Part shown: piece after piece, positions 2,595 through 14,813 of the stretch | Numbering within the stretch: the stretch's first letter is position 1 | How the letters are laid out: each line of letters opens with the position of its first letter | Origin: a virus | DNA length: 64,000 nucleotides | Direction: 5' to 3' (one strand) | Virus record (IMG/VR): IMGVR_UViG_3300027896_005002 | Span: 251,488 to 315,487 of that record | Position numbers and translations under genes: made by a program | Notes under the pieces: generated by a model | What the model saw: only the letters and a program-made list of their open reading frames with translations | The model's database searches: none | Told to the model about the DNA's origin: nothing

Positions 2595-2801
2595 TTAATT
2601 TTTAATTTCAACACAACCAGCAAGCTCACAAATACCATGACTACCATCAGGACAGTTATGAATATATGTTTTATTACATTGTTCACGTAAAGCTTCAAAT
2701 GCTTGACCTATAGTTGTTTGCATACTTTCTTCAATCACTCCACATTTGCGACATTTAAATTGTAATTTTGCATAAGTATTTGACATAATTTCTCCTACCA
2801 A
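2595..2801 (-). CDS. Small Cys-rich hypothetical protein
   Basis: 68 aa with CRKCG...CNKTYIHNCPDGSHGICELAGC; zinc-ribbon-like. Confidence 0.3.
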   Translation of the reverse strand: MVGEIMSNTYAKLQFKCRKCGVIEESMQTTIGQAFEALREQCNKTYIHNCPDGSHGICELAGCVEIKN

Positions 2802-3187
2802 AAATATTCTTTATTACTTGCAATTTTCTTCATTTTTTCTAAAATAATTTTATCTTCGATTACTCTAATTTCATTTGCTGCTGTTTTAATTATTGGATTG
2901 TAAACATTTTTGACCGTTCCATTTATTATACTATAATTCTTAAGAACCCAGTTAGGCAAATATCTCTTAGGATACTTACAAAACCGTTTTCGTAAACGTT
3001 TATTTCTAGTCCATCGTTTTGAATTTTTTAAATTTGATAGATATGCTAAACGATGCCATTCATTAATAGGAAATTCATCAGGCAAATTTAACTCTTGCGG
3101 ATGTATTTCTACTTTAGCTTTTATTACAAACATTTTTTTCATATTAGATGGCATCATATTTCCAAAACCCAGGAATAATTTTAGCAT
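2795..3187 (-). CDS. Hypothetical basic protein
   Basis: 130 aa ORF, no recognisable motif. Confidence 0.3.
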   Translation of the reverse strand: MLKLFLGFGNMMPSNMKKMFVIKAKVEIHPQELNLPDEFPINEWHRLAYLSNLKNSKRWTRNKRLRKRFCKYPKRYLPNWVLKNYSIINGTVKNVYNPIIKTAANEIRVIEDKIILEKMKKIASNKEYFW

Positions 3188-3518
3188 TAGGAATAATTCT
3201 TGCCATATTTAAAGCACCAATAGGATTAAAACTATGAATTATTATATGATTTGCCTGCTTATCTTCATTTCTTTCTAACCATTGAGCAACTTCATATCCA
3301 GTACCAGGACCAGAAGGTTCATAATATTTATCTCCCAAATCATGATCCAAACATATCAAATCAAACTTTTCACGTCCTTGAAGACAACTGATAGCATCTT
3401 TAGCAGTTTTAACTGTAATTACATCATGACCAATAAATTTCTTACGAAAAATTATAAGCCTTTCTTCACTGTCATCTAATATAAAAATTCTCATACATTT
3501 ATCTTTCAATTTTTTCAC
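3144..3518 (-). CDS. CheY-like receiver-domain-like protein (tentative)
   Basis: MRIFILDDSEERL...FDLICLDHDLGD...GTGYEVAQWL...HIIIHSFNP has acidic pocket residues in the positions of a response-regulator receiver fold. Confidence 0.3.
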   Translation of the reverse strand: MKKLKDKCMRIFILDDSEERLIIFRKKFIGHDVITVKTAKDAISCLQGREKFDLICLDHDLGDKYYEPSGPGTGYEVAQWLERNEDKQANHIIIHSFNPIGALNMARIIPNAKIIPGFWKYDAI

Positions 3519-3956: not shown

Positions 3957-4319
3957 CTAACCACCTTCCAATTCATTAAATTCTGTCTCTTCATCATCAT
4001 CAAAAATAGCTTTTTCAACAAGTAAACAAAGCATTGCTTTAACAAAATCTTTACCCATCATTTCATTACTACAATGCAGTTTTCCATCTTCAACATAAAA
4101 AGAAAATGATCCAAAACCAGTACCTTTCATACTCCAATGCACTTCAACTGGATGATACAAAGTCGGCGTTAATTCAAAACCAAAAGCTTCTTCATATTTT
4201 TTGACCATTTCTTTCGGTTTTGTTATAAAATCCTTATCAATGGTCATATCAAAATTTGCATCAGTTTTAAACGACTCGAATATCTCTTCAAGCTTCGACT
4301 TCTTTTGCGATCGCTTCAT
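3957..4319 (-). CDS. Hypothetical protein (start trimmed to an internal Met to avoid a 150-nt overlap with dnaE)
   Basis: The track ORF 3957..4439 overlaps the upstream polymerase ORF by 150 nt; the internal Met at 4319 (MKRSQKK...) gives a roughly 30-nt overlap. Confidence 0.25.
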   Translation of the reverse strand: MKRSQKKSKLEEIFESFKTDANFDMTIDKDFITKPKEMVKKYEEAFGFELTPTLYHPVEVHWSMKGTGFGSFSFYVEDGKLHCSNEMMGKDFVKAMLCLLVEKAIFDDDEETEFNELEGG

Positions 4320-7269
4320 ATTTTGCCATTCTTTCCTTTTGCTCTTCTGTTTTTTCATATACATTACCAACACAACAAACATCATACATATCAATGAAGA
4401 TATGATCCATATACTGACTAGTTTCAACTTCTCCGGCAATTATATTTGCTATTTTAATAACATCTAATATTGGTATCTTCTTAAATTTATCGCCTACTGG
4501 AATTAATGCCTTTTGACAACGTTTATTATATATTGGTAATCTAACTTTCACTATATTAAATTTTGCATCAGTTAATACAACATAATAATAAGCATTTCCA
4601 TTTTTACTTGTCTTTTTAATGATATCAGTTATTATTCCCCAAGAATATTGCTTTTGATGTAATCTTGGCTCCGTAAATTTTGTTAATGATTTAGCACCTA
4701 TATCTTTTATTTTCTGTTTTTGAATATCTGTTAATTTTGTTCTCCAATCAACACCATAAGCTTCCACAAATCTATCATGCTCAAATTTTTTATCATTGTA
4801 ATCGACATCTTGTTGCCAATTTTTCTCTTTCCTAATCTCAACAAAATATTTTTGTAATATCTCATTTTGTGTACCAAAACAATCAAAAGCATGAGCATCT
4901 ATCAAAGCAACAACAACACCTTTTCCAATCTTTTTAATCTCTGCTGTTTTACTATAAAAACCTTCAAAAGAAACAAAAGGTTGCGATGTAACTATTGTAT
5001 TGACTGCTGCCGGTCCTACACCTACAATATGTTCAATTCCAAACATAATGTTATTTTCATGAATTGTAAATCCTCTATTTGCTGTCCTAATATCAACAGG
5101 TATAATATTAATACCTTTATTCATTGCTTCAGCAAAATAACTCGGAAATTTCTCTGTTAATGAATTTGAAAACAATACTACAAAGAATTCCAGTGGATAA
5201 TACATCTTAAACCACATCATTTGGTAACTGAGAATCGTGTATGCTACTGCATGCGATTTATTGAACCCATAGCGAGTGAATGATACGCAGTTATCCCACC
5301 AAGATTCAGCTACTTTTGAAGTTAATCCATTGCTAACGCAGCCTTTAATGAATTTATCTTTAATTTCTGCTCGTTGTTTTGCACTTTTGTCTTTAGCATC
5401 TGTATCTCTAACAGATTTCATTAAATTCTTTCTGACAGTATCAGTCAAATCTAATGGAAATCCTGCTACAATATGACACAATCTCATAACATCTTCTTGA
5501 TAAACTAAGATGCCATAACTTTCCTTAAGACATTTTTCAATTAATGCAGATCCAAAATCAAATTTCTTACCATGTTTTCTTTCTGCATATTCATGATGCA
5601 TTCCCATATCTAACGGTCCAGGTCGTCCTAATGCAGTTGCTGATGTAATGTCTGCAAATGAATTCGGTTTTATTTCCTTAAGTAAAGATTTCATCAAACT
5701 ACTATTATGGACAACAAATCCATTTGCAACATAATTATGTTTTTGTTTTGTATTAAAACCAATATCATAAACAGTTTTTAATCCAGAATAAATAAATTTC
5801 TTAATTTTAATAAATTTATATCTTTGTGTATATTTTTTAAATTTACCAAGAACTTTTGGTTCACAATTTTTTTTGATGCATTGTTTACAAATATTATCAA
5901 CGCGACACTGTTCAACAATTGCGCGAGAAGATTCACAATAATATTGTGACCGTTCACGTTCTTGATCAATTAATACATTGTCACCAACTTTTAAATCTTT
6001 AAGTTGATACCAATCTATCTTTCTATTCTTTTTAGCATAATATTCATGTAGTTGAGTTGATTCAATACACATTTGATTTTCAAGTATAAGAATAAAAACA
6101 TGATCTTGTTTTTTCTGCATTGCTTGAATTTTTTGTCGTATCTTCCGTTTATTCTTGAGATCAACACAACCAATCTTATTTACAGATTCTGGATCTTGTA
6201 CAAATTTATTATACAACTCTTCAATCCTATAATTTCCTATCCAAGAATTTTCACCAATACACTCAAACTGGAAAATACCATTAGTATCTGTCTGTCTAAA
6301 TCTTTCATATACAAGATCATTTCCATCTAATGGCAATTTTGCTGAAAACTCTTCATATAACAATGATGTTAACTGTCCATTATCAATTGATTCAATGTCA
6401 AAATCTGCTTCTTTATTGTAAGATTTTCTTAATCTAATTAAGTCAAGTATCTCCTTTACAATGGTCAACGTTTTGAGACCTAAAATATCAAATTTGATAA
6501 ATCCTGAAGACTGTAAATCTTTCCTAATGATACCATCAACCCAACTTGTAATCAATTCATCTTTATGTCTCATTAATGGTATTGATTCATCAATTTTATC
6601 TGGAGTCGCAACGACACCTGCCGGATGTTTTGTTAGATGTCTTAGCTGACCTTTTAATTTGAAAATTATATCTTTTATTTGTGGATGTCGATCAAAATAT
6701 TTTCTTAAATCATAAAGATCTTTTCTGAATTCTTTATCACCTGGTTCTTTAGCTATTAAAATATCAAAATCTTCTTCAGATAAAAGATCAACATCATCAC
6801 CGAGATTTTTAACAACATCATTAGTATCATTTAAGTCAATATCAAAAATTCTGGCAATATCTCTAGTAACCATTTTCATTTTCATTTGACCATAAGAACC
6901 AATAGGTGCTACATGATCACTACCGTATTTATTGATAAAGTATTTTATAACTTGTTCTCGTTCATTAATACTAAAGTCACTATCAATATCAGGAAATGAA
7001 GATTGTTTTTTAATGACTAACGGCAAGTTTGATTGGACTGGATCTGTTTGAGAGATACCAAGAAGATAATAAATTAATGATCCATGTTTTTCAATTTTTG
7101 TTTCAGTTTTTAAAATATTGAGAACATAATCTATATTGTTTTGAACTTCAATATTTGACAATTCTTTTTCAAGCTGTAGAATATATCGCTGATCTTGCTG
7201 TAAACCTAACTTTGTAAGATGTTTCTCGCAAAGATATTGAATAAAATTTAATTTGGTTAATTCGGCCAT
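4288..7269 (-). CDS. dnaE: DNA polymerase III alpha (DnaE) family, C-terminal portion carrying the palm catalytic motif
   Basis: 993 aa ORF. Contains ...GSLIYYLLGISQTDPV...SSFPDIDSDF... (DnaE palm PDxDxDF catalytic aspartates) followed by KYGSDHVAPIGSYGQMK, matching the DnaE core downstream of the FERFLNPER motif. Confidence 0.85.
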   Translation of the reverse strand: MAELTKLNFIQYLCEKHLTKLGLQQDQRYILQLEKELSNIEVQNNIDYVLNILKTETKIEKHGSLIYYLLGISQTDPVQSNLPLVIKKQSSFPDIDSDFSINEREQVIKYFINKYGSDHVAPIGSYGQMKMKMVTRDIARIFDIDLNDTNDVVKNLGDDVDLLSEEDFDILIAKEPGDKEFRKDLYDLRKYFDRHPQIKDIIFKLKGQLRHLTKHPAGVVATPDKIDESIPLMRHKDELITSWVDGIIRKDLQSSGFIKFDILGLKTLTIVKEILDLIRLRKSYNKEADFDIESIDNGQLTSLLYEEFSAKLPLDGNDLVYERFRQTDTNGIFQFECIGENSWIGNYRIEELYNKFVQDPESVNKIGCVDLKNKRKIRQKIQAMQKKQDHVFILILENQMCIESTQLHEYYAKKNRKIDWYQLKDLKVGDNVLIDQERERSQYYCESSRAIVEQCRVDNICKQCIKKNCEPKVLGKFKKYTQRYKFIKIKKFIYSGLKTVYDIGFNTKQKHNYVANGFVVHNSSLMKSLLKEIKPNSFADITSATALGRPGPLDMGMHHEYAERKHGKKFDFGSALIEKCLKESYGILVYQEDVMRLCHIVAGFPLDLTDTVRKNLMKSVRDTDAKDKSAKQRAEIKDKFIKGCVSNGLTSKVAESWWDNCVSFTRYGFNKSHAVAYTILSYQMMWFKMYYPLEFFVVLFSNSLTEKFPSYFAEAMNKGINIIPVDIRTANRGFTIHENNIMFGIEHIVGVGPAAVNTIVTSQPFVSFEGFYSKTAEIKKIGKGVVVALIDAHAFDCFGTQNEILQKYFVEIRKEKNWQQDVDYNDKKFEHDRFVEAYGVDWRTKLTDIQKQKIKDIGAKSLTKFTEPRLHQKQYSWGIITDIIKKTSKNGNAYYYVVLTDAKFNIVKVRLPIYNKRCQKALIPVGDKFKKIPILDVIKIANIIAGEVETSQYMDHIFIDMYDVCCVGNVYEKTEEQKERMAKYEAIAKEVEA

Positions 7270-7314
7270 GGTACATTATTTACCAATTTTTGCTATTGTA
7301 TTACAGGTAGTTAA

Positions 7315-7539
7315 TTATGTAACATAAATAAGATCATTTTGTGAATGCGCAGAATGTAATCTAATACAAGCATGTGATGATCTAACGCCAAATCCGAGTA
7401 TTATAGGTCCTTTTATATCTTGTCTACAACATAAATCATCACATTCTTTTCTAATTTTACAATTACTACAGCCTATAGTATTTTTAAGTGTTCGATTTTT
7501 GTATATTCTTTCTTCTTCTGCACCAGGAATTGTACTCAT
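7315..7539 (-). CDS. Small Cys-rich hypothetical protein (inside dnaE insertion)
   Basis: 74 aa with CSNCKIRKECDDLCC. Confidence 0.3.
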   Translation of the reverse strand: MSTIPGAEEERIYKNRTLKNTIGCSNCKIRKECDDLCCRQDIKGPIILGFGVRSSHACIRLHSAHSQNDLIYVT

Positions 7540-8129
7540 TTTTTAATCTTTGACATTATATAAGTATATCCATGTATAGGATCATGAGGTAATGTACAAT
7601 TAGAACAATCTTTTATGTCATTTTTTAATTTATAAATTCCACCACAATCATCAATATGATATAAAGGACAATAGCAAAATAAACAGTTAACTTTTTTAAG
7701 ATCATGACAAGGCCAATATTCACATTTTTCATGATTGAAATTAGTAAACTCTGCACGTTCAATCATGTAAAAGCCTTGTACATTGAGAACACCATCATTA
7801 CTTGGATGTGGATCATGAACCAAAATTCCATGTCTATAAATAACAGCATGACCCGTTTTTACATATAACCTTGGACTGTCACCATGAACAATTACATATC
7901 CATCAAGTCCTTCATATTTATTTAAATCTTCAGGTTTTCCATGACCCATATATTCATAACCATTTTTTAACAAAAATTGTCTAAATGGCGGAAACCAATT
8001 TTTATCCAATTCAAATTGAGGTACTTCATCAAACGGTATTTCAAGTAAAGAAGCGACACAGGCAGCAAAACAATTGCCTGTTACTGATCCATCATGAGTG
8101 CTAATTTTTGTTTGTTTAATAGGTATCAT
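7536..8129 (-). CDS. Papain-fold peptidase C39-like domain fused to a C-terminal Cys-rich domain (tentative)
   Basis: N-terminal TGNCFAACVASLL (C39-like catalytic Cys context) and GHAVIYRHGILVHDPHP (His...DP motif). C-terminal cluster CEYWPCHDLKKVNCLFCYCPLY...CGG...CSNC. Confidence 0.35.
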   Translation of the reverse strand: MIPIKQTKISTHDGSVTGNCFAACVASLLEIPFDEVPQFELDKNWFPPFRQFLLKNGYEYMGHGKPEDLNKYEGLDGYVIVHGDSPRLYVKTGHAVIYRHGILVHDPHPSNDGVLNVQGFYMIERAEFTNFNHEKCEYWPCHDLKKVNCLFCYCPLYHIDDCGGIYKLKNDIKDCSNCTLPHDPIHGYTYIMSKIKK

Positions 8130-8132
8130 CTG

Positions 8133-8525
8133 CTAACTTATAGATACGATTTTAACTTTTTTAGATTTAAAAACTTTTTCAAAATCAACATTTTGAATAG
8201 TGTCATTATAGAAAAAATATGCAATATTTTCTAAAAAGAAATTACCATCAATACCAATATCATTTAACTTCTTAATAACTTCACCTTTCGGCATTGTTAA
8301 CCATGTATCATTTGGACCAATAAAGGATGGATCTAAATGTGAATGCATACACATTATAGCATCGTTATAATCACTTATTTTGACCATTTTAGTCGCAAAT
8401 AATTGTAGAAAATAATCAAACCAAACATTGGTCTTTTTAACTGATATTTCAATAAGATCGACTAATGTAACTGATTTGTCACATTTTAGTACTAACATGT
8501 CGTTCCTTGTTTGAAAGAATAACAC
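8133..8525 (-). CDS. Hypothetical protein (inside dnaE insertion)
   Basis: 130 aa ORF. Confidence 0.3.
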   Translation of the reverse strand: MLFFQTRNDMLVLKCDKSVTLVDLIEISVKKTNVWFDYFLQLFATKMVKISDYNDAIMCMHSHLDPSFIGPNDTWLTMPKGEVIKKLNDIGIDGNFFLENIAYFFYNDTIQNVDFEKVFKSKKVKIVSIS

Positions 8526-9153
8526 TAATATCTAAATATCCACCACATCCAACAGGAACGGTATAGGCAACTCTATTATGCGGTTTATCTTCTTTCGATG
8601 TATATGGCTGATTATTAGGACCATAATGAAAATCCAAAATATCACAAAATGCATTTAGCACATCTATGTGTGGTGTTGGATCTTCTATCCAAGGAACCAA
8701 AATTAAATCTAAATCGCGTTTAACTGACCCATGAACAGCTAAAGCATATCCTCGTTTTCGAGCTTCTTCTTGAAGTATGCCAAAATATGTCACATACCAA
8801 ATTGGCATCCATTCAGGTACAGGAGTTTTTTCTCGCACTAATTGTGGATCAAGAATATGAACTTCTCTAACATCAATTTTCTTCTTTGATAATGATTTGC
8901 CCAATTTAATTCTACCATCTGTACTTTGTAATAATTGTTTCACTAAATCTTTCTTTTCATTAGGTAAATCATCAAAAGTCTTTACTACTTTAAAATCAAT
9001 TTCAAAATTTTCAGAATGATCACCTTTAGTACAATTGCTACACATATATCCTATTTTTTGATTTGAAGGGTCATCTGCAGGTACAAGTTCTTTATTACTA
9101 CAATTATGATTTGTCATTGCATCTAACCATTGTTCAACAGTTTCAAATAACAT
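8479..9153 (-). CDS. Hypothetical protein, possible minimal nucleotidyltransferase fold
   Basis: AVHGSVKRDLDLILVPW resembles the hG[GS]x(n)DxD nucleotidyltransferase motif; an N-terminal CxxC pair. Weak. Confidence 0.25.
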   Translation of the reverse strand: MLFETVEQWLDAMTNHNCSNKELVPADDPSNQKIGYMCSNCTKGDHSENFEIDFKVVKTFDDLPNEKKDLVKQLLQSTDGRIKLGKSLSKKKIDVREVHILDPQLVREKTPVPEWMPIWYVTYFGILQEEARKRGYALAVHGSVKRDLDLILVPWIEDPTPHIDVLNAFCDILDFHYGPNNQPYTSKEDKPHNRVAYTVPVGCGGYLDISVILSNKERHVSTKM

Positions 9154-9165
9154 ATTTTCCTCTAT

Positions 9166-9786
9166 TCAATACATTTCCATGTGTTGTCTTAAAACTGAAT
9201 TCATTCTTGTAGAATAACCTTTACCTTGTTTTTTGAACCAATCAAGTACATCTGCATCTATCCTCATATGTAAAGCAATTTTCACATTGTGTATCGGACA
9301 ATCTTCTGATCTAACGCGTCGATGTTTACTAAGCCAACTACATGTACATTGTTTTAAAACATCTTTTTCAATTGAATATATACAAACTGCACGACTTGCT
9401 TGTACAAATGGTATTTTTTTAATTTCACCATCTACAAATTTTCCGGTAGCTAAATTATTAATTAATCGTCCCATTAATGTTATATGAACAGTTTTCTGTC
9501 TTAACATTGAAGCTAATTTTAATTCTAATTCATCTAAAGCTTTATTTGCTATATCTTCAGCCTTTTGTCCTTTTATGAGTTCTTTTTGAATGACAATAAT
9601 AATAGTCTTCGGATAAAATTTATACGATGGTGGTTGAGGAATATAATTTATCACTTCTATTTTATAATGTGGTATTGACGATAAATGATCATTATCTTTA
9701 TAATTTATCAACCATATTTTTGACTTGTTTCGAATACCAACACTTTCTATTTCACCTATTACTCTAGAACTTCTAATAACTTTCAT
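9166..9786 (-). CDS. Protein with C-terminal BrnA/DUF4415-like domain
   Basis: C-terminus IDADVLDWFKKQGKGYSTRMNSVLRQHME matches the BrnA antitoxin-like signature (...DVLEWFKAQGKGYQTRINAxLR..). Confidence 0.45.
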   Translation of the reverse strand: MKVIRSSRVIGEIESVGIRNKSKIWLINYKDNDHLSSIPHYKIEVINYIPQPPSYKFYPKTIIIVIQKELIKGQKAEDIANKALDELELKLASMLRQKTVHITLMGRLINNLATGKFVDGEIKKIPFVQASRAVCIYSIEKDVLKQCTCSWLSKHRRVRSEDCPIHNVKIALHMRIDADVLDWFKKQGKGYSTRMNSVLRQHMEMY

Positions 9787-9809
9787 TTATCGTCCTCCTC
9801 ATCACTAAA

Positions 9810-11660
9810 TTATTCCTCTTTTATCAATCGATTCTCATACCACTTATCAAAATCATCCTGATCATAATCTAATTCTTTTAACACTTTACTCTCAATATTA
9901 AAATCCCTTATTGAAAAATCATAAATTGCAACACTTCTAGACATGCTCAAGAATCTCTCAAATAATAGTCCATGTATTATTGGATCAACATTCGTTATAT
10001 CTAAAAGATAACAAACAAGAGATCCTGCAGCACTCCCTCTAGCAGATCCTACGAGAACGTTATTCTGTTTTGCAAATTTAATATAATCTGCTACAATAAG
10101 AAAATAATCTGCCATATCTGTTTTTCGAATAACACTCAATTCTGTCTTCACTCGTTTTATATAAACATCATCCCATAAATCTGTTGCTTTTCTTTCCCAA
10201 CCTTCTCTGGCCATTTCTACAAGGTACTCATAACTACTTTGGTTATCTTTTGTCACAATTCTCGGCAATTTCTCTTTAGAATCCCAATCCCAAATATTTA
10301 CTTTATTTGCTACTTCTAAAGTATTATTCAATCCTTCAATTAATTCATCTGGTGTCATATATTTACTATGACCAGCATCCAAATATGTATCTATCATTTG
10401 ATGACGATCTTTAAACCATAAATCCTTTGTAGCAAATTCCCATACTCTCTTAAATTTCTTTTTGCCTGTAATAATTTCATATATCTCTTCAAATGAAATC
10501 CCATAATCTTTATTATAAGATGTTAGTCTAAATTCAGCAAATCGATCCAACTCTATAAAATCGCTGTGTATTTGTCTGACACAACTTTCTGTTTGTGTTT
10601 CACCGCATTTTTCTTTAATAGCATCTAGAATTTCTCCAATGGCATTCATTCGTTTTTTATCTTTCATTGTGACCTGTTGACCATCATCCTTTGATCCCAA
10701 CATTAGAGAAATTTCTTGCGCCTTTGAATCTTCTTTATCTAAATAATGAACGTCATTTGTTATGATGTATTTGATATTTAATTCTTTGGCAATATCTATT
10801 AAAATTCTGTTGACATATCGTTGTTTGTCAATATCAATTATCATGATTTCAATATAGAAGTCATCACCAAATATTTCTTTAAATTGTTTTGCAACTTCAA
10901 TTCCCGCTTTTTTAGCACTGTCAACATTATTATCTTCATTCCTTAAAATAGCATTATTTATTGAACCAGCAAGACATGCTGATGACACAATTAATCCTTC
11001 TTTATTTTCAGCTAAAAAATTGAATGCTGTCCGAGGTTTATAGTAGAATCCATTTCTTGCAGCATCAGATACTATTTTAATGATATTTCTTCGGCCTTTT
11101 TCATTTTTTGCCAGGAGGACAACATGTCGATTATATTTGAGATGATCACGTTGTTTTGATAATTCTTCTTGTTGTTGTTTTAATTTTTTTAGTTCTTCAC
11201 CAAAAGCTTCTTTTATTTCTGAAGAATCTAATTCAAGAATTTCTTCAACATTATTTTTACCCATTATATGATCAAATATTGCAATATTAGCATTCACTAA
11301 TTTTTGACTTATTTTCTTATTTACAATTTGTTTAACGACTTTCATCACGCTTTCTATTTTATCTATTTGAACTTCTAATTCTTTAACCAAATGTCGTTCA
11401 TTTTGCATGTACATTTCAACACCAACAATTGGTTTTAAATTATTAGATCTACAATACATAAAGAAAGAAGGATGAGCACCTATACTACCATGATCAGTTA
11501 TTGCAAGAGCTGACATTCCTATTTCAATTGCTTTTTTGGCATATTGTGTAGGTTTTCCAATACCATCTTTGAGAGAGAAATCACTATGAAGGTGTAAGTG
11601 AATAAAATCTTTTTTATCACCAGATGCATATAATTTTTGTTTTAGTTCTTCTAATTCCAT
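9810..11660 (-). CDS. dnaE: DNA polymerase III alpha (DnaE) family, N-terminal portion (PHP domain and start of palm)
   Basis: 616 aa starting ATG at 11660. Has the PHP motif HLHLHSDFSLKDGIGKP...ITDHGSIGAHP and ends with ...VGSARGSAAGSLVCYLLDITNVDPIIHGLLFERFLSMSR (DnaE GSAAGS/FERFLNPER region) before a stop. Confidence 0.85.
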   Translation of the reverse strand: MELEELKQKLYASGDKKDFIHLHLHSDFSLKDGIGKPTQYAKKAIEIGMSALAITDHGSIGAHPSFFMYCRSNNLKPIVGVEMYMQNERHLVKELEVQIDKIESVMKVVKQIVNKKISQKLVNANIAIFDHIMGKNNVEEILELDSSEIKEAFGEELKKLKQQQEELSKQRDHLKYNRHVVLLAKNEKGRRNIIKIVSDAARNGFYYKPRTAFNFLAENKEGLIVSSACLAGSINNAILRNEDNNVDSAKKAGIEVAKQFKEIFGDDFYIEIMIIDIDKQRYVNRILIDIAKELNIKYIITNDVHYLDKEDSKAQEISLMLGSKDDGQQVTMKDKKRMNAIGEILDAIKEKCGETQTESCVRQIHSDFIELDRFAEFRLTSYNKDYGISFEEIYEIITGKKKFKRVWEFATKDLWFKDRHQMIDTYLDAGHSKYMTPDELIEGLNNTLEVANKVNIWDWDSKEKLPRIVTKDNQSSYEYLVEMAREGWERKATDLWDDVYIKRVKTELSVIRKTDMADYFLIVADYIKFAKQNNVLVGSARGSAAGSLVCYLLDITNVDPIIHGLLFERFLSMSRSVAIYDFSIRDFNIESKVLKELDYDQDDFDKWYENRLIKEE

Positions 11661-12194
11661 TTATCTTAACAAGCTTTCTTGAGAGACTACAGTGTCTTTT
11701 CCATTACAAACACATTCCATTATTTGATTTTCTTTATCAGTCGATTTACTTGTTGAACTAGCATATGGAAGAAATTTACTTGCACAATTATGACATTCAA
11801 GAAATCCTAATCCTATTTCTTTTAATTCTTCTCCACAATTAAAGCAATAAAACATTGTGTGCTCAGTTATTTGATTACTAATTACAAAAGACTCAAGTCG
11901 TTTTCTTATAATTTCTAACTTATCTTCTTGTCCGAAAAAAGCACCTTGTAACGAACATTTAGGTCCATTTGTACCACATGTAAATGATAATTTATTATTT
12001 TCAAATTCTATTACTAAATATTCTAATTGATGACTAAAATAAAATACAAATTCGCCATCACTAATAGGTGGAAGTGCAGTCCATCCAACTACAGATTTAT
12101 TCCAAGTAGATTGAGGTCTGTTTTCTGATAAATCCATGTATTCTTTGAACAATCGTTCCAATTCATCTATTACTATTTTATCATTTATTATCAT
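11661..12194 (-). CDS. Hypothetical zinc-ribbon protein
   Basis: 177 aa with CFNCG...CHNC. Confidence 0.3.
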   Translation of the reverse strand: MIINDKIVIDELERLFKEYMDLSENRPQSTWNKSVVGWTALPPISDGEFVFYFSHQLEYLVIEFENNKLSFTCGTNGPKCSLQGAFFGQEDKLEIIRKRLESFVISNQITEHTMFYCFNCGEELKEIGLGFLECHNCASKFLPYASSTSKSTDKENQIMECVCNGKDTVVSQESLLR

Positions 12195-12195
12195 T

Positions 12196-12477
12196 TTATT
12201 TGATCCAAGTTAAAGACCAAGAATCACCAGGACGTTCAAATCTATTATCATATCGATGATAAAGGATTGGAAAATCAAGTTTGAAACATCCTTTCGGACA
12301 TGTGCATAAAACAGCTCGACCATATTTGGGATGAATACCTTCAAGCTCATCCCATTCTTTATCAGATAACTTTTCATCAGGTTTTTTATTTAATTCATCA
12401 ATGCGTTCTTGAGAAACTGATGAATGTTGTTCTAATTCAAATCCACATAAAGGACAATGCATTTTATCTCCAATCAA
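12196..12477 (-). CDS. Hypothetical zinc-ribbon protein
   Basis: 93 aa with CPLCG...CTCPKGC. Confidence 0.3.
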   Translation of the reverse strand: MIGDKMHCPLCGFELEQHSSVSQERIDELNKKPDEKLSDKEWDELEGIHPKYGRAVLCTCPKGCFKLDFPILYHRYDNRFERPGDSWSLTWIK

Positions 12478-13120
12478 TTAATTCTTTACCCATTTCCTTC
12501 AATAATTCATTGGTCTTCGAAAAATGTTTACATCCAAAAAATCCTCTTGATGCTGACAGCGGTGATGGATGATTTGCAGTCAAGATATGATTTCCATCAG
12601 CAATGTATTGCTGTTTCTTTTGTGCGTGATTACCCCATAACAGAAAAATAATGTCTTTTTTACTAGAAATTAATTGTATGACATTATTTGTAAATATTGA
12701 CCACCCAATGTGTGAATGCGACATTGGTTTATGAGCTTCAACAGTCAAAGCCGTATTTAATAAAAGAATGCCTTGTTGTGCCCAAGATGTTAAATCAGTT
12801 GATGTTTTCTCAATATTCAAATCATCTTTTAATTCTTTAAAAATATTCCTCAAGCTTGGTGGTTTTTTTATTCCTTGTGGCACCGAAAAACATAAACCAT
12901 GTGCTTGACCGTCATCATGATAAGGATCTTGACCTAAAATTACTATTTTTAATTTGTCAATAGAGCATTGATTAAATGCATTGAATATTAGATTTTGAGG
13001 AGGAAAAATTTGTGATGTTTTATATTCATTTTCAAGAAAAATTTCCATTTTTTTAAAATATAACTTATTGAATTCATTTTCAAAAAATTTAAACCATGAT
13101 TCTTCTATAAAATCTATCAT
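12464..13120 (-). CDS. ung: Uracil-DNA glycosylase, family 1
   Basis: VILGQDPYHDDGQAHGLCFSV, PPSLRNIFKEL, WAQQGILLLNTALTV and HPSPLSASRGFFGCKHFS are the canonical family-1 UDG motifs. The track start at 13123 is GTG; ATG at 13120 is the more likely start. Confidence 0.85.
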   Translation of the reverse strand: MIDFIEESWFKFFENEFNKLYFKKMEIFLENEYKTSQIFPPQNLIFNAFNQCSIDKLKIVILGQDPYHDDGQAHGLCFSVPQGIKKPPSLRNIFKELKDDLNIEKTSTDLTSWAQQGILLLNTALTVEAHKPMSHSHIGWSIFTNNVIQLISSKKDIIFLLWGNHAQKKQQYIADGNHILTANHPSPLSASRGFFGCKHFSKTNELLKEMGKELIDWR

Positions 13121-13125
13121 CACAA

Positions 13126-13374
13126 TTATTCACCATCTTCATATTTGATGTTGATATTAATGGGTATTTGACGTTTATAACTATTTGCGGCTTTTAGATT
13201 ATTTTTCTTAATATGCGCCCATATAACTTTTATTGTAGAAATATCAACTGTTTGGTTTTTCAAATTTGAATCAAGCTTTTTAAATACTAAATTCATTAAA
13301 CAATGTTTAGGATCAGCACCATTACCGCAACCTACTGTTAACCATTCACTACAAAGAGTATTTGAACATTTCAT
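13126..13374 (-). CDS. Hypothetical protein
   Basis: 82 aa ORF. Confidence 0.25.
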   Translation of the reverse strand: MKCSNTLCSEWLTVGCGNGADPKHCLMNLVFKKLDSNLKNQTVDISTIKVIWAHIKKNNLKAANSYKRQIPININIKYEDGE

Positions 13375-13377
13375 AAT

Positions 13378-14079
13378 TCATCCTTGCCAGTAGCAATATA
13401 AACATTTATGAGTACATCTTATTTTCTGAGTTAGTAATTCTTTCTTACTTGCTAAACATGCACAATGTTCTCGTTGACCTTTTGCAAAATCAATAAATTT
13501 GACACCTAAAATTTCACAATCAATTTTAGAAACACAGCCGGTACATTCAAAACCAGGTTCACCACAAACCTCTGGTTTTCCAAAATCTTCCCATATTTTC
13601 TTTCTTAATTCTAGTGGAGCATGAAAAGTACTCCATGGTAAACGTATCTTTAATTGATCAAATCGTTCCTTTACATGATCATATTGATCAATAAAAGATA
13701 TTCTTACTCTAGTTTTAACAATTTTTTGAGCTTTTTCTAGTACTTGTTCGGCTAATTTAGTACCAATATCAGTTGGAATAATTGGGTCTATTCGCAAAAC
13801 AATCCGTTCTGGTCCATAATAATCACAAAGTTTTTCAAATCCTTTTAATGATTCATTAGAATGAGGTACTTCACATTCATATATTGATTGACCAAGACCA
13901 GTAATAGTAGTATGAATAATTATATTAAATTGTTTTGAATTTGGAGTGTGTTCAAGAATGTCGAATAATTTATCAGGATCTTTAGTTATGAGGATTGCCG
14001 GCTTGTTGTCTTGGACCCATGGTAACCAAGCATGATCAAATACAGGATCTCCACGTTCTGTTATTCCAATTAGATTCAT
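13378..14079 (-). CDS. DUF1848-family putative 4Fe-4S protein
   Basis: GPERIVLRIDPIIPT and the C-terminal cluster CGEPGFECTGC...CACLASKK...CTHKCLYCYWQG match the DUF1848 pattern (GPERVIWRYDPII...CNCVVSKD...CxHGCRYCYA) recalled from archaeal and bacterial members. Confidence 0.55.
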   Translation of the reverse strand: MNLIGITERGDPVFDHAWLPWVQDNKPAILITKDPDKLFDILEHTPNSKQFNIIIHTTITGLGQSIYECEVPHSNESLKGFEKLCDYYGPERIVLRIDPIIPTDIGTKLAEQVLEKAQKIVKTRVRISFIDQYDHVKERFDQLKIRLPWSTFHAPLELRKKIWEDFGKPEVCGEPGFECTGCVSKIDCEILGVKFIDFAKGQREHCACLASKKELLTQKIRCTHKCLYCYWQG

Positions 14080-14813
14080 ACATGTAAGTTTGTATTTGAT
14101 AAAAAATGATCGACAATTCGTTGTACTAAATCAAAGTGCTTTTCATATAAATGACCACTATTAGATATCCAAATTAATTCACCAATGTCTAAAGAAGGAT
14201 ATACTATCTGTAAATCATGCAACATTCTTTCTTGAATTATAGCAAACCATGGAAAATCTGAAAAGAATCCATACATCATGTCAGAACTTCTCATTTCAAC
14301 CAATGAGATTAATTTATCATGTCTAATAAAAAACTGTTGACCTAATGTACAGATAAAATCTGACATTCCATTTTTATTATATTCTTGTTGTATTGAAGGT
14401 CTATTATAAATTATTATTGATCGTCTTGAAAATGAATTTTTTGATAATTCTGCTAATGCACTATCATATTGATTGAAATTTTCTTTACTGTAGACTAAAT
14501 AACCATAATTACTATTTATTACTTGTTGTTCATCTTTAGAACAAACATTTAACCAAAGTTTGGCATGTTTGGCTATTTCTTTTACTGAAAGATCTTGACT
14601 ATCATACCATTCAATTTCATGTTGTATGTATTCCACAGGTGATTTTCTTATACCGAATAAATCAAGAAATTTTTGTGTAGGGTCAAGACTCATTTTCAAA
14701 CCAAGAACTTCAACTGTTTTGACGCCTGTTTTGTCTATTACAAAATCATTATTTTTGATTTTATTGTAAAAAGGCAATAAAGCATTTTCAATAAAAATTT
14801 GTTCATTTTTCAT
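14076..14813 (-). CDS. Deoxycytidylate 5-hydroxymethyltransferase (T4 gp42-like dCMP hydroxymethylase)
   Basis: Close to the T4 gp42 sequence as recalled. FVIDKTGVKTVEV matches FVVDKTGVKTIEI. INSNYGYLVYSKENFNQYDSALAELSKNSFSRRSIIIYNRPSIQQEYNKNGMSDFICT matches INSNYGWAIWSEDNYAQYDMCLAELGQNPDSRRGIMIYTRPSMQFDYNKDGMSDFMCT. Confidence 0.8.
   Translation of the reverse strand: MKNEQIFIENALLPFYNKIKNNDFVIDKTGVKTVEVLGLKMSLDPTQKFLDLFGIRKSPVEYIQHEIEWYDSQDLSVKEIAKHAKLWLNVCSKDEQQVINSNYGYLVYSKENFNQYDSALAELSKNSFSRRSIIIYNRPSIQQEYNKNGMSDFICTLGQQFFIRHDKLISLVEMRSSDMMYGFFSDFPWFAIIQERMLHDLQIVYPSLDIGELIWISNSGHLYEKHFDLVQRIVDHFLSNTNLHV

Follow-up and report, generated by a model that had tools for sequence, protein, structure and literature searches.

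The stretch of DNA analysed here, 64,000 nucleotides (nt) of IMG/VR virus record IMGVR_UViG_3300027896_005002 (positions 251,488 to 315,487; hereafter the window), encodes the DNA polymerase III alpha subunit, DnaE, as two adjacent genes on the minus strand, between which five tightly packed open reading frames (ORFs), A to E, are wedged at 7315-9786. Comparison with related loci suggests that dnaE exists as an established pair of genes, a split polymerase, in this phage lineage of roughly 416 kb, and that the short junction between its cistrons is probably permissive, tolerating extra DNA and acting as a hot spot for the gain, loss and swap of unrelated accessory genes. The layout of five ORFs between polymerase halves agrees with a first-pass annotation made from the sequence alone. 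That annotation also saw the block as one mobile cassette inserted in an essential gene, a view that did not hold, because neither ORF A nor the N-terminal half of ORF B is found in a near-identical strain (L021), and because the same split occurs with other cargo or with none. The features of the locus are as follows.

9810..11660, minus strand: N half of DnaE (DnaE-N), 616 amino acids (aa); upstream boundary of the gap; PHP domain and first part of the palm
9166..9786, minus strand: ORF A, 206 aa; two-module protein
8479..9153, minus strand: ORF B, 224 aa
8133..8498, minus strand: ORF C, 121 aa from the ATG at 8498 (130 aa from the GTG at 8525)
7536..8129, minus strand: ORF D, 197 aa
7315..7539, minus strand: ORF E, 74 aa; Cys-rich orphan
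4288..7269, minus strand: C half of DnaE (DnaE-C), 993 aa; downstream boundary; PDIDSDF catalytic motif, rest of the palm, fingers and HhH
8825..9808, minus strand: strain-variable segment (ORF A and ORF B codons 1-110), defined by blastn of L021 against the window

The two halves share the domains of a full-size DnaE between them. DnaE-N matched Pfam PHP (E 7.6e-40) and positions 1-99 of the DNA_pol3_alpha profile, and DnaE-C matched positions 68-260 of that profile, finger, HHH_6 and Intein_splicing; on an intact 1,093-aa homologue, DnaE-N maps to residues 4-428 and DnaE-C to residues 320-887. Relatives were fetched from IMG/VR and metagenomes and the junction was read in each. In all close relatives (62-73% identity) the split falls at one and the same residue; the split homologues in L001-L004 are 61-64% identical to DnaE-N. 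A distant clade (L048-L052, 35-38% identity) has the same split site, mostly with a 1-nt or overlapping junction and no cargo; in L048, for example, the halves lie at 6515-7993 and 7995-10817. Because this clade too is split at that site, two-gene DnaE is widespread among uncultured phages. In the other fetched relatives whose contig includes the whole gene (L005-L013 and others), DnaE is a single uninterrupted ORF of about 980-1,260 aa.

A palm segment of ~100 aa is present in both halves as diverged copies (blastp E 4e-7), at 9813-10163 (minus strand; DnaE-N residues ~500-616) and at 6970-7269 (minus strand; DnaE-C residues 1-100). On reading the two copies, their decay appears complementary: the N copy keeps GSARGSAAGS and has YDFSIRDF, and the C copy keeps the catalytic PDIDSDF and has lost the GS motif. 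Such complementary decay suggests fission by partial tandem duplication. The simplest history would be an old fission, by duplication and then degeneration, with later gene traffic through the junction.

The content of the gap varies from relative to relative. Our census took in about 20 loci, with 12 distinct arrangements in close relatives, and the gap ORFs of relatives were assigned with Pfam. Besides the A-E arrangement of the window, the following gaps were found.

No gene: L036 (stop/start overlap) and L004/L040 (190-bp spacer)
ORF C homologue alone: L042 and L043
ORF C homologue and a glycosyltransferase-like protein: L035 and L037
ORF C homologue and a 126-aa ORF: L038
ORF C homologue and ThyX: L002/L044 and L003/L039
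ORF C homologue and a 427-aa ORF: L045
ORF C homologue and a collagen-like protein, with or without an 88-aa ORF: L001 and L046

Since the same split site occurs with unrelated cargo or none, in close relatives as well as in the distant clade, the split is independent of the present cargo and probably older. ORFs A, B, D and E occur in a single sub-lineage only, and even there the cargo has been replaced in part. L021, which comes from another sample, is 99.3% identical to window 8824-6993, comprising the C-terminal domain (C-domain) of ORF B, ORFs C, D and E, and the start of DnaE-C, and it is 92.7% identical over the end of DnaE-N, up to window position 9809. Between these two aligned stretches the window has 984 bp (ORF A and ORF B residues 1-110) and L021 has 506 bp, with nothing alignable between them; the 506 bp hold two small ORFs and a different N-terminus for ORF B. 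The replacement breakpoint falls at the ORF B domain boundary. Across the retained B C-domain, changes between the two strains are mostly synonymous. The 65-aa ORF that stands in place of ORF A in L021 (299-496) is a paralogue of a 130-aa ORF at window 2795-3187 (minus strand; tblastn E 2e-6); the two have a common W.RNKRLRK.F motif and belong to a small-gene family that is apparently shuffled within the genome.

ORF C is the sole recurrent gene between the dnaE halves. It is present in 10 of the 12 gap arrangements. Homologues lie in the gap of L001, L002, L003, L035, L037, L038, L042, L045, L046 and L021, overlap the DnaE-C start in L001, L003, L038 and L045, and were found by hmmsearch of all fetched loci nowhere but in the gap. 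Their alignment shows a conserved N-terminal K..T(L/I).D.I..TGI....FWF.Y, which looks helix-turn-helix-like, and a basic C-terminal KSRKIKV. ORF C had no match in Pfam or PHROGs, nor a significant one in two profile searches of PDB sequences; the best endonuclease-type match was I-MsoI at a non-significant E of 0.35. Because ORF C is absent from cargo-free and distant split loci, it is not required for split DnaE in general. It is a lineage-specific gap protein that could either be functionally linked to the polymerase or be left over from the event that split the gene.

The other large ORFs of the gap are modular, with boundaries as follows.

9367-9786, minus strand: ORF A N-terminal module, residues 1-140; domain of no known family
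9169-9366, minus strand: ORF A C-terminal module, residues 141-206; CxC...CxxH and then a BrnA-type ribbon-helix-helix (RHH)
8824-9153, minus strand: ORF B N-terminal part, residues 1-110; Cys-containing, poorly modelled
8482-8823, minus strand: ORF B C-domain, residues 111-224; minimal pol-beta-like nucleotidyltransferase-fold domain with HGS-x3-DxD...D
7746-8129, minus strand: ORF D N-terminal domain, residues 1-128; C39-like papain-fold cysteine peptidase
7539-7745, minus strand: ORF D C-terminal domain, residues 129-197; PF04071 Cys-rich small domain

The BrnA-like C-terminus proposed for ORF A in the first-pass annotation was borne out: residues 164-203 matched BrnA_antitoxin (PF14384) with E 7e-14 and 52.4 bits against a cut-off of 26.1. 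ORF A also matched phrog_4692, and its residues 164-203 are 42% identical to residues 45-87 of the BrnA of Burkholderia phage phiE202. In that phage gp6/gp7 form a BrnT/BrnA type II system, in which a 90-aa BrnT gene overlaps that for a 90-aa BrnA. The likeness lies in the C-terminal 40 residues, which are a BrnA RHH domain; unlike in BrnT/BrnA, no BrnT was found, an N-terminal domain and CxC...CxxH are added, and the neighbours are a polymerase half and ORF B. At 206 aa with these extra modules, ORF A exceeds the small single-domain BrnA antitoxins (about 70-110 aa). Both modules exist as separate proteins: a standalone 148-aa protein (P0060) matched residues 2-141, and standalone proteins of 69-106 aa, including P0057 and P0058, matched residues 141-205, CxC...CxxH and BrnA RHH together. 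ORF A, P0057 and P0058 belong to a BrnA-like subfamily, found in metagenomes as standalone proteins of 69-106 aa, in which a conserved C-x-C-x12-C-x2-H stands ahead of the RHH. IMG/VR searched with ORF A, P0057 and P0060 returned zero loci. Judged by its domains, ORF A is best described as a putative DNA-binding protein of the BrnA RHH type that carries an additional N-terminal domain.

For ORF B the suggestion of a nucleotidyltransferase, which had drawn on the motif HGSVKRDLDLIL, was upheld as a resemblance of fold and motif. The motif is present in ORF B as quoted, and the C-domain has a pol-beta-type fold with HGS..DxD..D. Residues 111-212 matched phrog_35913 and phrog_31354, both of no known function. 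Twelve homologues gave the consensus GYALAVHGS..RDLDLI.VPW ... KPHGR ... YLDISV, in which H141, G142, R146, D147, D149, R194, D208 and S210 are invariant and S143 is kept in at least 90%. The C-domain model (predicted local distance difference test score, pLDDT, ~90) has the order helix-strand-strand-helix-three strands; in it the motif residues lie where strand 1 ends, where strand 2 begins and on a strand further along. In structural comparison it resembled the pol-beta-like alpha/beta nucleotidyltransferase fold with moderate scores, NuoC-like chains scoring alike. The ~110-aa alpha/beta core, the GS, the DxD and the third Asp on a later strand recall MNT antitoxins, AbiEii/MenT toxins and aminoglycoside/lincosamide nucleotidyltransferases; unlike in those minimal nucleotidyltransferases, where the GS-to-DxD spacing is usually about 9-13 residues, the spacing in ORF B is 3, no nucleotidyltransferase family of Pfam is matched and a partner gene is lacking. 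ORF B matched nothing in Pfam, NCBIfam or PADLOC, and a profile search against PDB sequences gave nothing significant. Its resemblance to nucleotidyltransferases, as judged from sequence and model, is thus one of fold and motif and not of membership in a curated family, and its role may be that of a small enzyme with a minimal nucleotidyltransferase fold. Most homologues of the C-domain are standalone proteins of ~125 aa, whose neighbours in other phages are unrelated early genes (RNA ligase, methylase, VRR-NUC) or hypothetical genes.

ORF D had been described as a C39-like peptidase fused to a Cys-rich module, and fold, invariant residues and a family match all agree with this. The quoted GNCFAAC, GHAVIY and VHDPHP are found in ORF D. 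Residues 129-196 matched PF04071, a zf-like domain, with E 4.5e-19 and 68.6 bits against a cut-off of 27; the same domain is precomputed for P0013, a protein 99% identical to ORF D. Residues 1-130 matched phrog_5845, a family whose function is not known. Among 43 homologues Q6, C20, H94 and D106 are invariant, and their order and spacing suggest that they are the C39 catalytic Gln (oxyanion hole), Cys, His and Asp. The model of residues 1-128, built from the 43-homologue alignment (pLDDT ~95), has a papain-like fold closest to the C39 domains of LahT (6mpz), PCAT1 and ComA (5xe8). ORF D thus resembles the peptidase C39 domains of bacteriocin and PCAT transporters in its papain-like fold and Gln/Cys/His/Asp set, and differs from them in being a phrog_5845 member fused to PF04071, in having no PF03412 match and in having neither an ATP-binding cassette (ABC) transporter nor an identified double-glycine substrate. 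Residues 1-128 had no Pfam match at E ≤ 1, which includes PF03412, and a profile search against PDB sequences was empty. Neither an ABC transporter nor a GG-leader peptide lies beside ORF D among the window ORFs read or in four homologue contexts. All three proposed domains are supported; among the five ORFs, Pfam matched A (PF14384) and D (PF04071), with no match for B, C or D residues 1-128.

The C39-PF04071 fusion occurs in this strain group only. Other homologues of ORF D are single-domain proteins of 117-170 aa or have other tails, and standalone ones of 125-150 aa come from diverse phage contexts; that of Acinetobacter phage Effie, for instance, has a different C-terminus. Caulobacter jumbo phage CcrSC encodes both families, but at places 15 kb from each other and on opposite strands, and in CcrPW B is absent near D; a functional linkage of B and D was accordingly rejected. 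ORF D would act as a C39-like cysteine peptidase with a Cys-rich metal-binding module.

The start of ORF E overlaps the stop of ORF D (ATGA). ORF E has six Cys and is conserved only in L021 and in L022, a 415,903-bp metagenome contig with a gene set identical to that of the window. No family match was found, the best being a WhiB-like PHROG at a non-significant E of 0.065, and ORF E is perhaps best viewed as a small Cys-rich peptide. The sequence before its first Cys ends in KNTIG and has no double-glycine leader. An RNA element within ORF E was considered, as it contains a 30-nt imperfect inverted repeat, and was rejected on a fold z-score of -0.07.

Several other explanations of the A-E block were weighed, with probabilities that were set independently and do not sum to one. 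The first-pass annotation had likened the block to a toxin-antitoxin or abortive-infection module, and a role of this kind or in counter-defence, either as an A-B pair or through an orphan antitoxin-like A (BrnA RHH) and an MNT-like B that neutralise host toxins, would fit the bona fide BrnA domain of ORF A and its position next to ORF B, across a spacer of 12 nt. We nevertheless consider it very unlikely. None of the five ORFs matched BrnT (PF04365, E ≤ 1) or HEPN, AbiEi or MenA partners; PADLOC found no relevant defence system, and NCBIfam gave nothing. The phiE202 BrnT, run by tblastn and phmmer against all six frames of the 64-kb window, had no match better than E 1.4, this being a single-sequence query that divergent toxins could escape. 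Moreover, the B C-domain is kept without ORF A in L021, no B homologue whose neighbours were read lies beside a BrnA-like gene, and ORF A is 206 aa with extra modules, against 90 aa for the annotated phiE202 BrnA. The B and D families were found singly in unrelated phage contexts, not as a block. On the sequence evidence, neither a toxin-antitoxin pair nor mobility machinery of its own is supported for A-E. A broader version, in which the dnaE junction would be a replication-coupled counter-defence slot, with A and B as toxin-less antitoxin mimics against host toxin-based immunity, D cleaving a host factor and C a dedicated Pol III alpha partner, seems to us improbable to the same degree. Less probable still is that ORF D processes the translationally coupled ORF E in the manner of bacteriocin or ribosomally synthesized and post-translationally modified peptide maturation: the C39 fold and catalytic residues of D, and the small size, six Cys and overlapping start of E, are what such a pair would have, but E has no double-glycine leader and no homologues outside this strain group, no ABC transporter is nearby, and the D homologues in the four other contexts inspected have no consistent or comparable small Cys-rich neighbour.

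Two further explanations centre on ORF C. If a free-standing homing endonuclease or other mobile element had split an intact dnaE, ORF C could be what degeneration has left of that element, with the other ORFs arriving afterwards. ORF C is nearly always in the gap and never seen elsewhere, relatives have many homing endonucleases and inteins around dnaE, and the diverged ~100-aa duplication in both halves suggests a recombinational origin. Against this, neither an endonuclease motif nor an endonuclease family was detected in ORF C, the best match being the non-significant one to I-MsoI, and the distant split clade and two close relatives have no ORF C. The first-pass annotation had seen no homing-endonuclease motif here, and scans of the five ORFs for homing-endonuclease families were indeed empty (Pfam E ≤ 1, PHROGs E ≤ 0.1, NCBIfam E ≤ 1), as were scans of the gap ORFs of the window, L001-L003, L021, L035, L038, L039, L045, L046 and L049. 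Transposase or integrase families had no match on the five ORFs in the same three databases, and a search for flanking direct or inverted repeats gave only short AT-rich chance matches. An intron was rejected as well, because Rfam had no match at E ≤ 1 over window 4000-12500, each half is closed or opened by a stop or start codon of its own, and part of the coding sequence is present twice, once in each half. We hold a relic of this kind to be quite improbable. Slightly less so, while still unlikely, is that ORF C, possibly with others of the ORFs, serves the two-piece Pol III alpha as an accessory factor or in its assembly. Its exclusive residence in the gap, its overlap with the DnaE-C start in four relatives and the apparent sharing of the polymerase operon by the cargo speak for this; split polymerases without ORF C (L004, L036 and the L048-L052 clade) and the restriction of A, B, D and E to one sub-lineage speak against it.

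A permissive junction between standing dnaE cistrons remains the explanation that we favour. The likely route for cargo exchange would be recombination between co-infecting relatives, with the conserved polymerase halves as homology arms. The five ORFs would be independent passengers, and their spacing suggests that they are probably co-transcribed with the polymerase genes. Some points weigh against this explanation. We infer the co-transcription with dnaE, the recombination route and the independent functions of the five genes. The census of about 20 loci counted gains and losses without phylogenetic control. With ORF C in all but two of the 12 gap variants, frequently overlapping the DnaE-C start, part of the cargo is no random passenger. 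Finally, ORFs A and B are neighbours and each is similar to a class known from toxin-antitoxin systems, which makes a functional A-B pairing in this strain conceivable.

The split dnaE has its nearest precedent in Aeromonas phages 44RR and 25, where the family-B polymerase gene 43 is divided into 43A and 43B, with an untranslated spacer at the junction in 44RR and a seg endonuclease gene in phage 25; likewise, mobE splits nrdA of phage Aeh1 and mobA splits the T4 topoisomerase gene (PMC2988022). According to a review of such genes in pieces, the gene may already have been split when the insert entered it (PMC2988022), which is the course favoured here. As with genes in pieces generally, the gene is in two cistrons here and intact in homologues. 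As with gene 43, an essential replication gene is present as two adjacent cistrons that need reassembly, and what lies between them differs between relatives. Unlike gene 43, the polymerase is a C-family Pol III alpha (DnaE) with PHP, the scanned gap ORFs include no homing endonuclease, the cargo amounts to up to five unrelated genes, and the halves share a diverged ~100-aa duplication.

Iyer et al. (2021) described group 2.2 jumbo phages that encode a minimal Pol III alpha as two proteins; these have no PHP or other domains, are encoded by distant genes and accompany a family-B polymerase (PMC7824862). The present phage resembles that group in having a jumbo-phage Pol III alpha catalytic subunit as two separate proteins, and differs in that its DnaE is full-size and contains PHP, with adjacent genes and cargo between them. 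A literature search, itself incomplete, found no report of such an adjacent split of a PHP-containing phage DnaE. Phage morons and hyperplastic accessory regions are small unrelated genes, often orphans, that lie between core genes, vary between strains and are transcribed with their neighbours. ORFs A to E are similar to these in being small, unrelated and strain-variable between conserved core genes; unlike morons, they occupy a slot inside a gene that is single and essential in other phages, and one of them, ORF C, is nearly fixed.

The five ORFs follow one another head to tail, either 3-45 nt apart or with the stop codon of one overlapping the start codon of the next, and sequences resembling Shine-Dalgarno sites are present. 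The GC content of the region is ~30%, as in the surroundings; because a stop would be expected about every 13 codons at this composition, five abutting open frames of 74-224 codons appear far beyond chance. No terminator-like site was found on the coding strand of the A-E region, and promoter-like sites there were not above those of shuffled sequence. Relatives fetched from IMG/VR are catalogued there as viral contigs, and elsewhere in the window there are ORFs with matches to phage families (helicase, NAD-dependent ligase, NAD synthetase and tail fibre); together this indicates that the source is an uncultured very large phage. Window 4200-11800 had no nucleotide similarity by blastn to any of 50,697 phage records.

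DnaE-C contains a mini-intein of 186 aa (5704-6261, minus strand), inserted after GIFQFE, in which no endonuclease domain was detected. Extra inteins occur in relatives, in the N half of L003, L004, L036 and L039 at GARG|C and in the C half of L002, L003 and L004 at YGFNK|C; some of these, on reading, seem to hold HNH-like CxxH/CxxC motifs. Reading of translations also pointed to TnpB-like ORFs flanking the dnaE region in L004 (8791-9816 and 19748-20887) and to GIY-YIG-type endonuclease-like ORFs near dnaE in L001 (20720-21784) and L002 (3709-4791). Mobile elements are apparently common around the dnaE locus, and none was detected inside the gap. UDG, DUF1848 and ThyA genes lie upstream of dnaE at 12464-14813 (minus strand). 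Thymidylate synthase differs in type and position between relatives, being ThyA upstream of dnaE here and ThyX inside the gap in L002 and L003. Just downstream of the polymerase operon, at 3144-3518 (minus strand), is a receiver-domain protein (PF20274 cREC_REC, precomputed for the identical L022 gene).

For annotation, phrog_5845 gains a fold-level assignment as a C39-like Cys peptidase, and phrog_35913 and phrog_31354 gain one as a minimal nucleotidyltransferase fold with an unusual HGS-x3-DxD motif; the BrnA-like subfamily with a preceding CxC...CxxH is a further gain. The locus also illustrates that domain names alone are insufficient to call a toxin-antitoxin module. The cargo genes themselves are ordinary, belonging to existing phage families or having recognisable folds, and it is the conserved split with its loadable junction that merits specialist attention. 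Full-size DnaE occurs as two adjacent genes in two divergent clades of uncultured phages, with a junction that is empty or holds up to five unrelated genes. Together, these loci provide a natural series for studying how fission of an essential polymerase is tolerated and how the resulting junction turns into a hot spot for accessory genes.

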